17,765 bases of DNA from an archaeon (GTDB taxonomy: Archaea; Iainarchaeota; Iainarchaeia; Iainarchaeales; CSSED10-239), in the NCBI GenBank assembly GCA_035387745.1, contig DAOOON010000009.1, positions 1 to 17,765 of the forward strand, given 5' to 3'. Position 1 is the stretch's first letter; each line of letters starts with the position of its first letter. Position numbers and translations under genes: made by a program. Shown here piece by piece: positions 16,201-17,765 of the stretch. The notes beneath the pieces were generated by a model. It was not told the origin of the DNA. It searched no databases and was given only the letters and a program-made list of their open reading frames with translations.

Positions 16201-17765
16201 GTTATAGGACTGGAAAGATAAATTCTGAAAGAAAAGCAGACGTAAATATTACTTTAATAAATTCAGGAATGACTCCAATACAATTAATAGGAATTGGAGA
16301 TTCTGTATCTGGAAAGTTAAGTTCAGAAAATGCAGGAGTTAACGAACAGTCATTTTATACTTTTGTTTCATGGGATAAAGAATACAATAAAAATGACAAA
16401 GAAGAATATTGTGAAGCTCTAAAGAAATATTATGATAGTTTAGGTGGCAAAGCCACAATGTTTAACAAACCAGAAGAGTGTGATTTTGAAGAAACAAAGA
16501 CAGAAAAGAACGCAAAAGTTAGTAGGGCTCTAAAAAGAGCAGGTTCTTATTTGCTCGGTTGTTTTTCTAGTTGTGCTCTTTTAACTTATGGGGCAGATTC
16601 ATTGTGGAATTTAATTCCAGTTTTAGGGCAAGTAATGTTTGTACACAATGTAATAAAAGATATTGCAATGAATTGTGGTCTTGGGTGTGGTATTCCAACA
16701 GTACTAATGTTTGGTGAAGAAACCGGAATTACAGAAAAAGTGATGGATTTTATTTATAAAATTCCAATTGTTGGAGATTTTGCAAAATTTTTGGGCGCCG
16801 CTTTAAATTTTTTAGGTGGTGCATTTAATAGTATAGCCGGAGCAATATTTGGAGGAGGAGACGGTGTTGCAGAAACTGAAGCTTTAGCCAGTCAATTAGC
16901 AGAAGAAGGCGCAGGAGCATCAGATTTAAGTACGGCTGCTGGTGCTGGAGTGGCAACAGTAGGTATTAGGGATGCAAGAAGATTAAATGGCTTTCCTGGA
17001 GATATAGGTTTAGTTGTTCCAGAGTCAGGTGTCGAATCAATAAAGTGGACAGATATAGGTGGAATTTCTGGATTAGATATAGATGATGTAGGAAAAATAA
17101 TAGAAATTCCTAATTCGGAAGTTCCAAGACTTGTGAATTTTGTCCCAGGTACTACAACTACAACTGGCGGCGGATTAGGTAGAACAATACATTCAACTAA
17201 ATTAGTAAACCATATAGACTATTTAGCTCATAATCCACAAAAGGGTACTAAATATTGGTTTAATGCAGGAAGAGGGGATCAAACAACAGTTAATAGGATT
17301 TTAAAAAAAGCTGGGCTTCATCCAGATAATACAGAATTTATTAAAATGACACCAGAACAAAAAAGAGATTTGTTTTATAGTATGCCTACTGAGGATAAAC
17401 AGAAAATTGCAGACATTCTAAAAAAACATCCGAACTCTTATATACAAAATCCAAATATTATAGACGAAAGAGTCGGGGCTCATATACCAAGTGGAGAGAG
17501 ATTTGCAGGTGATATTGAAAAGCACCTTAAATCTCCATTAACAACAACCAGCAAAATTACTGGTGGTAATCAAGTTCAGTTTATAAATAGTGCTGAAAGT
17601 ACAAAAGCCGAATTGCAAAAATTATTAACAAAAACACAAGCAGAAGCAGCAGTAGATAAATTAAAAAACCAGATTAATGAAATCGATGATGTTATTGCTA
17701 AGGCTCGTGAAGGCACAACAATTGAATTAGACGAAATTAGCAAAATAAATAATCAATTAGACGAT
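10260..17765 (+). CDS. Giant membrane-anchored multi-domain surface protein, 3'-partial (>2,502 aa), family unknown
   Basis: An in-frame TAA at 10257-10259 precedes ATG 10260. I translated the frame by hand to 17765 and found 2,502 sense codons with no TAA, TAG or TGA. A/T-ending codon usage matches the neighbouring genes. The supplied track lists only two short antisense ORFs across these 7.5 kb, apparently because the caller needs a stop codon. Confidence 0.9.
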   Translation, partial: MAKEKAKPKGSKAKKEETDFEDTEIDDYSEVDEEFSEENIGKQTENNIFGKAYKWLETKYYSFSDWLTKKGINLNKANDFLEEKGIPAFVFVASLTLIILAVLIFLIINFATKTTVEFSIVDFSNNPLSDVDVKIYDLKDKTKFNGTISDGHKARLSLKSGINYTINATKSGFADYEKDNLFTRGEPIKIKFSENVTLGNFKLSVTDLETKKAISNYRAILSYDISGKPQEQTATPGSANQISFTDVPLGKSLSLVIEADGYQTVSKSITVSNNEEIIPIELQFDLDSAQLEGLDARGTIVAVSDTGDVLDDCEVTIYNISDEKIATGITQLGRFTFTEKVGSVIRFVVTKEGYKTYDSDEENKTFRLLRSEDTFTATLKKGSSDLKVMVVEDMVGPVSDADVSLYNLVGNLLTEKTTLLDGEVIFSGLDKNKDYIVTACKEDYLCSQYFVNIDNGNDLEAKLVKLGSAETYKLSIYVYDGANAPLSTANVLVYKLLNGKYVPIGFGPLQVDLTGYTSVFTQKAETYKVVGIAGDSNASQEITIDQFKDNKVILIINDASKEVTLQLKDIYGNPVIDGYVIVKSKTGEILYEGYIDAENPAKFSTKGYKDLIVEYLDEEGNTTVASAVVGSGEDLVVSLKPMIEDFNPIISFLEIRDLQNNSTSILSKDKDYYLVFDLQLPVDVKKCGVHFRAGKDSENDSENMDYGITGFKADTTSFKYSTTYNEGQQSIDFDNVGSPNELNKWLELYWPDVSLTNKQIMLKVKATEIGDLLLRYRAWCEDSEGKIYRDPEDTTLGTARNNSSKQSLYAETKEQVFKVFETPAECSDNLCVEYKFLDKGGFDYSNETFFGTVDEMYLLELNYYSPKSGELTIDTETDASHPIIGLINYQDTDLFPSSEQDSQETKLSSMAVSLQSGIYRKQYLLFNAKNIGVTYIDIKSTFNSNVTEKRLTFEIKNKRNLEVNVSELLPYNTPITIEVKDADNKSPINNALVKLEDEFGDLISSTKKAKAGKYIINQNFSSSKPNLEVMAPGYAPYTQQLMIADTGLISGPDSISINFGNEISQETEIITLVNKGNAKITDLTYQITPIDEVAELTIETQLPVTLNPASPSEIEVTSVIDPKLKFKTAKYVLTIFGFVGNKQVAKDIEIEIYKGQVQENCLDIKPLAIYSYVGISEGSENEITATLVNNCKKAITVTPELLKAKGTVIKKDENLEIVLPSVTIEPNEEITDYTITIKNNKARKTTKSYIFEIAWRNAYYALPNTKLNVDLVDYSKTIKIIPPVSIVSMSQFNEEIVASNKTVFSITNTGKYPLKDIQISRLEEKYVSNIQDKIEPITFEEIKPGQTKQVSIIYEGKVSNATRATLFYKVTAISPGSKDPIDAKFTVDFRISSASCLKIDQKKIAFYTRIGEEKIKLINITNQCAEPIAYIDYDINPNRAPNDFTLAFGEGTGVALVPATPIPFIGIGQTVPFYLKVKPTRYFTPRTENRFTIIGIPVNNTALSMVTSEIIWISTEVEAPDEDTVEDLERIEENISVKICDSDEKMDVAMPKIVTDCKEDGYCDAEGAAELILEKIQELHNVVIDVSKQLNNELAQTNCSMATSQQNGCVISDLLKPDQLKLFKNIPIYLQNDSLSQRTLEIVLGNTKEATKYPTIKNYAIRENVGSTSGGLQMIGNIIHVDNKMQGCGRYKITIDGRIATKDQKTLAPEKAYFFVTIDYNKTGPCAKSIENVRMYLPKDTTHFKKSNMGDTWLTMISGDENIGKTIAKQAFDSDERFQLRTDNIKKFSQLDVSIGTITENENAIAKLYFNNTTTATSPQPEKVNLVVNDYYTINKEGEESKYSEEFVKQVSENVKDIINGTPADICISQDKNYMLILSFEAAEYGALSLKAQNDKLQLTPLEKCVVLTAQSAVAEKITVKYEDILGVRTKFNYSGQDYTDKLSLVLEKDKPTDFNVCFLGDIGQVVSWSDQNVKIIAESGYRTGKINSERKADVNITLINSGMTPIQLIGIGDSVSGKLSSENAGVNEQSFYTFVSWDKEYNKNDKEEYCEALKKYYDSLGGKATMFNKPEECDFEETKTEKNAKVSRALKRAGSYLLGCFSSCALLTYGADSLWNLIPVLGQVMFVHNVIKDIAMNCGLGCGIPTVLMFGEETGITEKVMDFIYKIPIVGDFAKFLGAALNFLGGAFNSIAGAIFGGGDGVAETEALASQLAEEGAGASDLSTAAGAGVATVGIRDARRLNGFPGDIGLVVPESGVESIKWTDIGGISGLDIDDVGKIIEIPNSEVPRLVNFVPGTTTTTGGGLGRTIHSTKLVNHIDYLAHNPQKGTKYWFNAGRGDQTTVNRILKKAGLHPDNTEFIKMTPEQKRDLFYSMPTEDKQKIADILKKHPNSYIQNPNIIDERVGAHIPSGERFAGDIEKHLKSPLTTTSKITGGNQVQFINSAESTKAELQKLLTKTQAEAAVDKLKNQINEIDDVIAKAREGTTIELDEISKINNQLDD
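10515..10592 (+). other. N-terminal transmembrane anchor of the giant protein (residues 86-111)
   Basis: The hydrophobic segment is IPAFVFVASLTLIILAVLIFLIINFA. An 85-aa charged segment precedes it: a Lys-rich stretch MAKEKAKPKGSKAKK, an acidic stretch ETDFEDTEIDDYSEVDEEFSEE, then WLTKKGI...LEEKGIP. Positive charges on the N-terminal side suggest N-in, C-out topology. Confidence 0.75.
10599..12179 (+). repeat. Six tandem ~85-aa beta-sandwich repeats (PEGA / CarboxypepD_reg-like), residues 114-640
   Basis: Each unit has a recurrent pattern. Examples of the first element are PLSDVDVKIYDL, VLDDCEVTIYNI, PVSDADVSLYNL, PLSTANVLVYKL and PVIDGYVIVKSK. Each is followed about 45 aa later by KSGFADY, ADGYQTV, KEGYKTY, KEDYL or TKGYKDL. 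The repeat is visible at protein level only. Confidence 0.7.
13140..13394 (+). repeat. Isolated seventh copy of the PEGA/CarboxypepD_reg-like unit (residues 961-1045)
   Basis: LEVNVSELLPYNTPITIEVKDADNKSPINNALVKLEDEFGDLI...LEVMAPGYAPYTQQLMIAD has the same strand pattern as the N-terminal array. Confidence 0.6.
13422..14810 (+). repeat. Four tandem ~105-120-aa Ig-like repeats (residues 1055-1517)
   Basis: My unit boundaries are 13422, 13740, 14091, 14445 and 14810. Each unit contains a (V/I)(T/V)N-x-(G/C)-x-x-x-(I/L) strand: TLVNKGNAKI, TLVNNCKKAI, SITNTGKYPL, NITNQCAEPI. Units 2 and 4 both open with CL(D/K)I. Confidence 0.6.
16539..16859 (+). other. Second hydrophobic, Gly/Cys-rich membrane-interacting cluster of the giant protein (residues 2094-2200)
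   Basis: The segments are SYLLGCFSSCALLTYGADSLWNLIPVLGQVMFV, IAMNCGLGCGIPTVLMFG and IPIVGDFAKFLGAALNFLGGAFNSIAGAIFGGG. They show small-xxx-small / GxxxG spacing. Confidence 0.6.
16990..17594 (+). other. Non-repetitive C-terminal region of the giant protein, no recognisable family
   Basis: GFPGDIGLVVPESGVESIKWTDIGGISGLDIDDVGKIIEIP is followed by a TTTTGGG linker. A His/Lys-rich segment then follows: HSTKLVNHIDYLAHNPQKGTKYWFNAGRGD...HPDNTEFIKMTPEQKRDLFYSMPTEDKQKIADILKKHPNSY. I recognise no catalytic motif. Confidence 0.4.
17595..17765 (+). other. Predicted coiled-coil segment at the open end of the giant ORF
   Basis: ESTKAELQKLLTKTQAEAAVDKLKNQINEIDDVIAKAREGTTIELDEISKINNQLDD shows heptad-like hydrophobic spacing and has no Pro, and it continues past the window edge. 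Confidence 0.5.

Follow-up and report, generated by a model that had tools for sequence, protein, structure and literature searches.

A conserved charge-free helix-turn-helix with matched cysteines in a giant surface protein from an uncultivated archaeon of the DPANN type

Why does a giant archaeal surface protein become hydrophobic again about 2,000 residues after its membrane anchor? The question is raised by a stretch of 17,765 nucleotides (nt) of archaeal DNA (contig DAOOON010000009.1, positions 1 to 17,765; hereafter the window), which has a G+C content of about 30% and is identical to the European Nucleotide Archive metagenome contig ERZ761564 NODE_3623 (locus L002, 1-17765). A single open reading frame (ORF) at 10260..17765 on the + strand encodes the giant surface protein; it is truncated by the contig end, and the window contains 2,502 of its 3,066 codons. 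For the full length of 3,066 amino acids (aa) we used the copy on L001 (10726-19926), a 37.8-kb Joint Genome Institute contig (Ga0116242_10002173) that differs from the window at 3 nt over the window length and at 2 aa over the 2,502 common residues. The protein belongs to an uncultivated DPANN-type archaeon, and its homologues come from uncultivated archaeal metagenome-assembled genomes (MAGs), whose records include 'Candidatus Diapherotrites archaeon'. An earlier note on this DNA had offered two explanations for the hydrophobic cluster: a second attachment to the cell's own membrane, or a conditional insertion module aimed at another cell. Our own reading is a tentative one, with a probability of only about 0.4: the cluster would be the hydrophobic core of an extracytoplasmic, disulfide-stapled helical bundle, possibly a latent element for binding a host membrane, and not a Sec-type anchor.

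The argument turns on the following elements, given with their positions in the window and, for the last one, in L001.

10527..10595, + strand: N-terminal transmembrane (TM) anchor, aa 90-112; Kyte-Doolittle (KD) hydropathy 3.25, summed Hessa scale -5.7; no other TM helix of the protein is strong
16497..16538, + strand: basic flank ahead of helix H1, aa 2080-2093, KTEKNAKVSRALKR
16539..16616, + strand: helix H1, aa 2094-2119, AGSYLLGCFSSCALLTYGADSLWNLI, with C2101 (nt 16560-16562) and C2105 (nt 16572-16574)
16617..16628, + strand: hairpin turn P2120-V-L-G2123
16629..16715, + strand: helix H2, aa 2124-2152, ...KDIAMNCGLGCGIPTVLMFG, with C2139 (nt 16674-16676), C2143 (nt 16686-16688) and P2146
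16716..16859, + strand: helices H3/H4, aa 2153-2200, including the Gly/Ala/Asn-rich amphipathic FLGAALNFLGGAFNSIAGAIFGGG
16860..16991, + strand: acidic helix and Ala/Gly-rich tail, aa 2201-2244, ...STAAGAGVATVGIRDARR
L001:18961-19050, outside the window: partner helix H5, hydrophobic and Gly-rich, aa 2746-2775

The existence of the cluster was confirmed. The earlier note had placed it at 16539-16990, which corresponds to aa 2094-2244, and all five peptide segments that it quoted were found as written. The cluster starts 1,981 residues past the TM helix at aa 90-112, in agreement with the distance claimed. The return to hydrophobicity is also real: aa 2094-2244 is the most hydrophobic 151-aa window of the 3,066-aa protein (mean KD 0.62, against a protein median of -0.31) and at the same time its top Gly+Ala window (0.30). 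Compared with the rest of the protein, the cluster has more Gly (15.9% vs 6.1%) and Ala (13.9% vs 5.9%) and less Lys (2.6% vs 8.8%). The feature is therefore not a product of chance. There was no additional overlapping ORF of at least 80 aa on either strand of the cluster region. The GC skew was 0.34 at 16001-17000, against 0.06-0.2 across nt 10001-16000 of the giant gene; we attribute this jump to the Gly/Ala-rich coding stretch (GGN/GCN codons), as an effect of coding composition and not a replication signal.

The label 'glycine-zipper-like', which the earlier note had attached to the cluster, had to be given up. When the same residues were shuffled, 3.6 GxxxG motifs were expected and four were observed (P = 0.50). 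The corresponding numbers were 17.9 and 21 for [GAS]xxx[GAS] (P = 0.17) and 2.0 and four for (G,A,S)xxxGxxx(G,S,T) (P = 0.145). No glycine-zipper family of the full Pfam-A was matched by the whole protein (E <=1), the 455-aa window segment (E <=0.01) or the 23 cluster segments (E <=1). Segment 4, the most zipper-like one, was kept only in closer relatives. We thus rejected a glycine zipper on the shuffle statistics (P 0.15-0.5). The term describes the composition of the cluster and not a demonstrated motif.

We then asked whether the segments could be membrane-spanning. A TM helix was expected to reach a KD value of about 1.6 or more (the classical threshold) over about 19 or more residues, and an apparent free energy of about 0 or below. 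For the latter, the biological (Hessa) scale was summed over 19-residue windows in a simplified form, without position or length terms. As the earlier note had remarked, the segments are unlike the clean N-terminal helix: their best 19-residue windows had KD values of 1.13-1.35 against 3.25, and every 19-mer in the cluster was at or below 1.35 and thus under the integration threshold. On the summed scale, the best cluster segments of the query scored +4.2 to +7.8 and H5 scored +8.6, while the N-terminal TM helix scored -5.7. Among 21 homologues, no cluster or H5 segment fell under +1.9, and the N-terminal TM helices ranged from -1.2 to -8.0. The flanking charges were informative as well. On average, the 15 residues ahead of H1 held 3.7 K+R, the loop held 1.2 K+R and 1.1 D+E, and the C-flank 1.7 K+R and 3.0 D+E. 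If both ends of a hairpin are outside, the positive-inside rule calls for a basic loop; the basic N-flank, neutral loop and acidic C-flank seen here show the reverse.

Segments of this hydropathy are not without parallel. The same scale gave +2.2 for the gp41 fusion peptide of human immunodeficiency virus (HIV), +3.2 for the VacA N-terminus, +3.9 for PrP and +5.8 for Abeta. The cluster segments (+4 to +9) overlap the range of these conditional membrane-active Gly/Ala-rich peptides (+2 to +6). A model of head and cluster made with AlphaFold2 (AF2) placed helices at aa 2080-2116, 2127-2155 and 2169-2196, with a predicted local distance difference test (pLDDT) of 24-60 in the cluster compared with 80-94 in the Cys-rich head domain that precedes it. 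The helices were not packed confidently onto the well-modelled head, so the cluster is apparently not the buried core of the head domain. Foldseek with this model returned MG/Ig-like sandwiches only, at a TM-score of about 0.12.

An exhaustive phmmer search with aa 2040-2502 against 1.84 billion representatives gave 13 matches, all of which were giant proteins or their fragments. Every full-length match (2,362-3,182 aa) carried the module at about aa 2000-2330. Full-length homologues together with fragments covering the region made up an alignment of 29 members, and the charge-free helix-turn-helix was retained in all of them. Positions 2100-2112 of H1 were virtually without charge (one position at 3%) and positions 2135-2152 had essentially none, and the charge-free spans were bounded by charged residues. 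C2101 (27/29), C2143 (28/29), G2123 (25/29, with Ala in the other four) and P2146 (26/29) were near-invariant; the second cysteine pair was less strictly kept (C2105 in 22 and C2139 in 21 of the 29). G2123 was also the sole invariant column of a 15-sequence C-terminal alignment. Throughout the family the skeleton runs in the same order, namely basic flank, H1, the P2120/G2123 turn, H2 with C2143 followed by I-P, and acidic flank, and its Cys, Gly and Pro residues stand at fixed spacing even among members that are 16-20% identical. H3/H4 were kept in closer relatives only, and distant members retain a short (K/E)IPxxG-type motif. Family-wide, only the Cys/Gly/Pro skeleton and the lack of charges are conserved.

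Searches of family databases gave little for the cluster. Pfam scans of 23 cluster segments produced scattered matches only (E >=0.002; DUF4112, CAAD, Dicistro_VP4 and others), none of them in more than three members, and the traces of DUF4112, CAAD and Dicistro_VP4 were treated as compositional. Word-index searches with aa 1990-2502 or with a 23-sequence cluster profile had no matches and missed even the 98%-identical homologue P0001, which the full-length query did find; such searches are uninformative for a low-complexity hydrophobic region. The module matches no described family (Pfam, PDB, PHROG). It is a conserved module, and one specific to this family of giant proteins.

The cysteines followed a simple rule. 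In 28 of 28 members that include H5, the number of cysteines in H1 equalled the sum of those in H2 and H5. Five classes (H1,H2,H5) were seen: (0,0,0), (1,1,0), (2,1,1), (2,2,0) and (3,2,1). An extra cysteine in H1 occurred only where H5 had one, and this was the case in two separate groups, one being the clade made up of P0012 and P0024-P0033 and the other the pair P0016/P0021. In the query clade the cysteines have the register of a twin CX3C: C2101 precedes the turn by 19 residues and C2105 by 15, and C2139 follows it at a distance of 16 and C2143 at one of 20. AF2 predicts that both arms are helical. Distant members had one cysteine pair only. Pairwise disulfide bonding is the simplest explanation of the parity, which makes the hairpin cysteines putative disulfide partners. 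The pairing would place the module in an oxidising or otherwise disulfide-competent compartment. The co-occurrence of cysteines in H1 and H5 suggests that H5, about 600 residues downstream, packs on H1, and that the helical region between them is an excursion from a shared base. A Cys-based metal or Fe-S site was set aside, because classes with two or zero cysteines exist and the counts pair exactly.

These patterns bear on the simplest alternative, in which the cluster would be a compositional, low-complexity linker without a specific fold, a by-product of Gly/Ala-rich sequence between domains. Low AF2 pLDDT and a motif periodicity not above composition would suit such a linker. However, it is already contradicted by the conservation pattern: Cys, Gly and Pro are near-invariant and keep a fixed spacing in members that share 16-20% of their residues, the cysteine counts obey the parity rule, and helices are consistently predicted. 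We regard it as very improbable.

The C-terminal end of the protein helps to decide on which side of the membrane the module lies. NlpC/P60 domains were detected by Pfam in the homologues P0006 (2903-3028, 28.4 bits) and P0011 (2979-3065, 82.4 bits), where the PF00877 cut-off is 23, and the precomputed Pfam annotation lists NlpC/P60 for P0010 as well. P0019 ends in SLT (2892-2950) and GDSL (3133-3288) domains. Altogether, the C-terminal domains of homologues vary between papain-like, canonical NlpC/P60 (replacing the papain-like domain or added), SLT with GDSL, unknown and none. As peptidoglycan hydrolases stand at the C-terminus of homologues, the C-terminus should be extracytoplasmic. The query's own domain has an invariant Cys ('CAAFV'), His ('PPHVVLYVG') and Gln (C43, H119 and Q137 in a 7-sequence alignment, where C43 corresponds to C2923 of the protein), and hhalign aligned its His strand and third residue with those of NlpC/P60 domains from homologues (P = 7e-4, probability 27%). 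In the C-terminal 1,008 aa, nothing matched PF00877 at or over its gathering score, and Pfam, NCBIfam and PHROGs yielded no credible family, the last with one chance-level match only (E 0.017, unknown function). A scan of a genome collection with the C-terminal domain found four archaeal MAG loci. The AF2 model of the C-terminal 987 aa had a mean pLDDT of 56 and a predicted TM-score of 0.27, and serves for secondary structure and one small domain; with it, Foldseek found nothing at E <=0.5. Large murein hydrolases have been reported in DPANN genomes and read as signs of predation on bacteria (PMC9723730; PMC12352652).

With this evidence the attachment to the cell's own membrane can be weighed. 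In the form proposed by the earlier note, with both ends of the ectodomain pinned to the membrane and a cytoplasmic C-terminus, it is disfavoured by the hydrophobicity, the charge flanks, the cysteine pairing and the C-terminal hydrolases. An amended form would have H1, H2, H4 and H5 as marginal TM helices and the ectodomain as a 2,000-residue loop; the coiled-coil excursion would be cytoplasmic, and H5 would export the hydrolase again. Several observations are in its favour. Charge-free stretches of about 19 residues with charged bounds are kept family-wide. The excursion (501 residues, aa 2245-2745) has 0 cysteines and only two N-x-S/T sequons against 5.0 expected (z -1.5), unlike the Cys-rich, sequon-enriched regions on either side, and the strongly basic N-flank of H5 fits an in-to-out helix. 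There is also a precedent in giant nanohaloarchaeal proteins with an Ig ectodomain, a TM domain and a cytosolic VirB4-like ATPase (PMC10266531). Nevertheless, the biological scale is positive (+1.9 to +8.6) in every homologue, the N-flank of H1 is basic and its loop neutral, and H5 of the query clade contains a conserved Asp. H4 has no equivalent in distant members, which would leave three helices and an intracellular C-terminus. A disulfide-like parity of cysteines would have to hold inside the membrane. In homologues, T/P-rich or G/S/T-rich linkers of extracellular type lie between H4 and H5, that is, inside the supposedly cytoplasmic excursion, and family scans found no ATPase or other cytoplasmic domain in the protein. 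We consider the amended anchor unlikely.

The rate of evolution was not even along the protein. Identities between the query and its close relatives P0002-P0006 were as follows.

Repeats of the ectodomain: 82-86%
Head: 80-84%
N-terminal TM helix: 70-96%
Hairpin H1-H2: 46-61%
H3/H4: 50-56%
Excursion, aa 2245-2745: 21-39%
H5: 43-83%
Small beta domain: 65-81%
C-terminal domain: about 71-72% where not replaced

The expectation of a cluster conserved while the repeats vary was thus reversed in close relatives, in which the repeats are 82-86% and the hairpin 46-61% identical. The part that evolves fastest is aa 2094-2775, and its bounds coincide with the hydrophobic elements H1 and H5. This fits a surface that contacts a partner or host and is atypical for a membrane anchor or a housekeeping core. 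The segment may be a recombining or diversifying cassette.

The same pattern is relevant to a purely structural role without any function at a membrane. A buried, disulfide-locked hairpin with H4 and H5, possibly at the centre of a trimer, would then be a core or oligomerisation hub that links head, coiled-coil stalk and enzyme. The cysteine pairing includes H1-H5 staples and would give a rigid unit, the module is followed by a long helical/coiled-coil region of a type that usually oligomerises, the spacing of glycines is at chance level, and no homology to pore-forming or fusion families was found in Pfam and other family scans. However, structural cores are usually the slowest-evolving parts of proteins, and here the hairpin is 46-61% identical compared with 80-86% elsewhere. 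In a soluble bundle one would not normally expect a helix that is without charge in 29 divergent members and bears a Ser/Thr stripe, and AF2 showed no confident packed core. Although we find it doubtful, this alternative is nearly as likely as a latent membrane element.

In the bundle that we favour, the module would belong to the outer part of the giant surface protein, at a distance of about 2,000 residues along the chain from the anchor. H1 and H2 would form an antiparallel hairpin that turns at P2120/G2123 and is stapled by two disulfides, C2101-C2143 and C2105-C2139, in a twin CX3C arrangement. The Gly-rich amphipathic H3/H4 would pack on the hairpin, and so would the distal H5 (here aa 2750-2773) on its return from the helical/coiled-coil excursion of about 550 residues, directly followed by a small beta domain and then by the putative papain-like (NlpC/P60-like) hydrolase. 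In the resting state the hairpin may be buried in the manner of 'inside-out' toxin domains. Once a host or prey is contacted, it could bind or insert, holding or perturbing the target membrane, while the adjacent enzyme would cut the wall. A latent membrane element directed at a host or prey seems the most plausible role, because the organism has to live off other cells and the module is the neighbour of a wall hydrolase, some 2,000 residues out from the anchor. The second explanation of the earlier note, a conditional-insertion module with a cargo, gains indirect support: the swappable hydrolase, a hydropathy in the range of membrane-active peptides and the fast evolution of aa 2094-2775 would all count for it.

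A number of points weigh against this bundle with its latent membrane function. The cysteine classes are phylogenetically clustered and represent about 3-4 independent transitions, not 28. Disulfides are assumed, yet the habitat is presumably anoxic. Cysteine covariation is the one observation that would join H1, H2, H4 and H5 in a bundle, and the AF2 confidence in the cluster is low. Binding to or insertion into a membrane by the cluster is something we infer from the sequence, and the hydrophobicity values come from the simplified scale described above. The H1-H5 disulfide predicted for two clades would keep the bundle locked and hinder the unfolding needed for a colicin-like insertion. The composition of the excursion, with its lack of cysteines and few sequons, would fit the cytoplasm too, and the basic N-flank of H5 points the same way. 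Finally, the query's own C-terminal domain had no match in Pfam or in the PDB, where a sequence search gave four chance-level matches (E >=0.24) and a profile search none.

A more specific proposal, which we regard as a long shot, is that the cassette of aa 2094-2775 is a harpoon or fusion device for host membranes, with a fusion-peptide-like hairpin (H1/H2), stapled by its cysteines, and H5 at the base of a long helical hairpin. Displayed on the beta-sandwich stalk beside the wall hydrolase, it might insert into the membrane of a host or prey after local digestion of the wall, and might nucleate a membrane contact or cytoplasmic bridge that supplies DPANN cells with lipids and metabolites. 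Its fast evolution would then track the host range. The way in which the hairpin and H5 would be held together recalls the juxtaposition of fusion peptide and TM segment in class I viral fusion proteins.

Little is known in molecular terms about how ultra-small DPANN archaea fasten onto other cells, open the envelope and take material from them, and this locus is a concrete candidate. The family is rare (13 matches among 1.84 billion representative proteins). The outer part of its members joins a wall hydrolase to a charge-free helical module with paired cysteines, whose evolution is faster than that of the remaining protein. The cysteine bookkeeping predicts contacts between helices, and the bounds from H1 to H5 define a unit for expression, topology mapping and liposome work. 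Even if the module is only a structural core, the analysis sets right two annotations that easily suggest themselves, a 'second TM anchor' and a 'glycine zipper'.

The remaining parts of the protein are listed below.

10260..10526, + strand: N-terminal charged segment, aa 1-89, predicted to be cytoplasmic; its motif is common to the neighbouring paralogous giant of related loci
10596..14801, + strand: ectodomain, aa 113-1514, with Ig-like / CarboxypepD_reg / MG-like beta-sandwich repeats (also bMG3 and PEGA-like)
14802..16484, + strand: Cys-rich alpha/beta 'head', aa 1515-2075, with 10 invariant or near-invariant cysteines
17184..17486, + strand: small helical domain, aa ~2309-2409 (HIDYLAHNPQKGTKYWF…ADILKKH), AF2 pLDDT 83-95
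17562..17765, + strand: start of the long helical/coiled-coil excursion, which continues past the window to aa ~2745
After H5, seen in L001 only: small beta domain
L001:19366-19923, outside the window: Cys-His papain-like C-terminal domain, aa 2881-3066

The motif ahead of the TM helix (…F.K.Y..LE.KY..FSDWL..KGI…LEEKGIPAF) was kept family-wide and in the paralogous giants, which suggests that aa 1-89 may be a cytoplasmic docking or regulatory domain. In the repeat ectodomain, MG/Ig-like sandwiches were confirmed by Foldseek, and N-x-S/T sequons were enriched (22 vs 13.9 expected, z +2.5). The pLDDT of 80-94 in the head applies to aa 1525-2005. Of the C-terminal 987 residues, AF2 modelled with confidence only the domain at aa ~2309-2409, which had neither a family match nor a structure match.

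Housekeeping genes are also present in the window: a sodium:solute symporter, a flavodoxin/ferredoxin protein, a purine phosphoribosyltransferase, a DUF2207 membrane protein, PEP synthase, a low-molecular-weight phosphatase and LemA. In the DUF2207 membrane protein (3944-6475) the N-terminal domain is duplicated; the protein also contains an E/Q/R/L-rich repeat (...EEQRLKIEEARLKQIEEQRLILEEQRL...) and ends in a poly-Gly tail (GGGGGFGGGGGGGFGGGGGGGGGAGAR). At the start of the contig, a gene for a RhuM-family 'virulence protein' (81-1133, - strand; Pfam E 3.9e-107) lies beside the housekeeping genes and may be a mobile-element remnant. Notwithstanding this gene, an origin of the giant gene from a phage or mobile element was set aside in view of its housekeeping neighbours.

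The surroundings of the giant gene are conserved. The order LemA, giant gene, a protein of 575-602 aa with a pilin-like N-terminus (MNKKGFTLFTALISLLLV...) and a second giant paralogue was kept in three loci; L001 ends inside the pilin-like gene, and the position of the second paralogue is covered by the remaining loci only. In each of the three long loci covered (the window, L005 and L008), a LemA-family gene (window 9535-10092) lies immediately 5' of the giant gene. Just past the window end, the pilin-like gene is found at L001:19976-20558, L005:10593-12401 and L008:10586-12313. The N-terminus of its product (MNKKGFTLFTALISLLLVSVALSLIF) is similar to a class III / type IV pilin signal, and the protein had no Pfam match at E <=0.01, with only a chance-level N_methyl match in the L001 copy (E 0.2). 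On its 3' side follows the second giant paralogue of at least 2,300 aa (L008:12460-19413; L005:12402-19783, in frame 3 and running off the locus). This paralogue, to whose type P0022 belongs, has the same N-terminal cytosolic motif and TM helix and a CarboxypepD_reg domain at a similar position; hydrophobic cluster, coiled coil and hydrolase are all absent from it. The arrangement of LemA, giant, pilin-like protein and giant suggests a gene cluster for a surface appendage or adhesion.

Among known systems, pore-forming colicins, the T domain of diphtheria toxin and Bcl-2-type domains bury a hydrophobic helical hairpin among amphipathic helices. The module resembles them in its helix-turn-helix, which spans about 55-60 residues, is charge-free and has many Ala, Gly, Ser and Thr residues, in its amphipathic flanking helices, and in belonging to a secreted or displayed protein that would act on another cell. 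However, its hairpin is less hydrophobic, and the conserved cysteine staples, in some clades to an outer helix, should restrain insertion. Neither Pfam Colicin nor another family matched the cluster, and Foldseek matched the beta-sandwich parts only, a comparison of folds that is weakened by the low-confidence model of the cluster. HIV gp41, VacA, PrP and Abeta share the Gly/Ala-rich composition and the hydropathy, but in the query the zipper spacing is not enriched and segment 4 is not kept in distant relatives.

The small Tim proteins of the mitochondrial intermembrane space are helix-loop-helix proteins with a twin CX3C. As in them, two CX3C motifs lie on antiparallel helices at matched distances from the turn, which would give an inner and an outer disulfide between the helices. 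Unlike them, the module is part of a 3,066-aa protein, its helices are hydrophobic and charge-free, its disulfides are predicted, and there is no homology. Distant family members retain the outer pair only, and some members add a third cysteine that would pair with a distant helix.

Phage tape-measure or tail-tip proteins, such as pb2 of T5, combine a coiled coil, hydrophobic segments and a muralytic domain. The order of elements is alike (a hydrophobic Gly-rich part, a long helical part, a hydrophobic helix and a peptidoglycan hydrolase), and so would be the logic of breaching wall and membrane. The query differs in being encoded by a chromosomal gene amid housekeeping genes, with a PHROG match at chance level only, and in carrying an N-terminal TM anchor and about 2,000 residues of adhesin-like ectodomain ahead of these elements. 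Polymorphic toxins and effectors of contact-dependent inhibition also join a conserved delivery part to variable C-terminal domains, as the query family does; here, though, no immunity gene that varies with the effector lies directly downstream, and the next gene encodes the conserved 575-602-aa pilin-like protein in three loci.

There is also a likeness to other giant proteins of DPANN archaea. Nanohaloarchaeal SPEARE-type giants consist of a signal peptide, an Ig-repeat ectodomain, a TM domain and a cytosolic VirB4/TraG-like ATPase (PMC10266531), and 'large lytic murein transglycosylases' have been reported in Woesearchaeota MAGs (PMC9723730). The query differs from these giants in having an N-terminal signal-anchor with a conserved cytosolic segment instead of a signal peptide, and a post-ectodomain region that is far under TM hydrophobicity and has a disulfide-type pairing of cysteines. 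No VirB4/TraG ATPase domain was found in its 3,066 aa, and phmmer detected no sequence relationship outside its own rare family. Like them, it is a very large membrane-tethered protein of an uncultivated archaeon with a small genome and has a long run of Ig-like beta-sandwiches; past the ectodomain come a hydrophobic region and then a coiled coil, and family members contain cell-wall-degrading domains. The module is undescribed, and the kind of protein that contains it is a known one, namely giant DPANN surface proteins with lytic domains.

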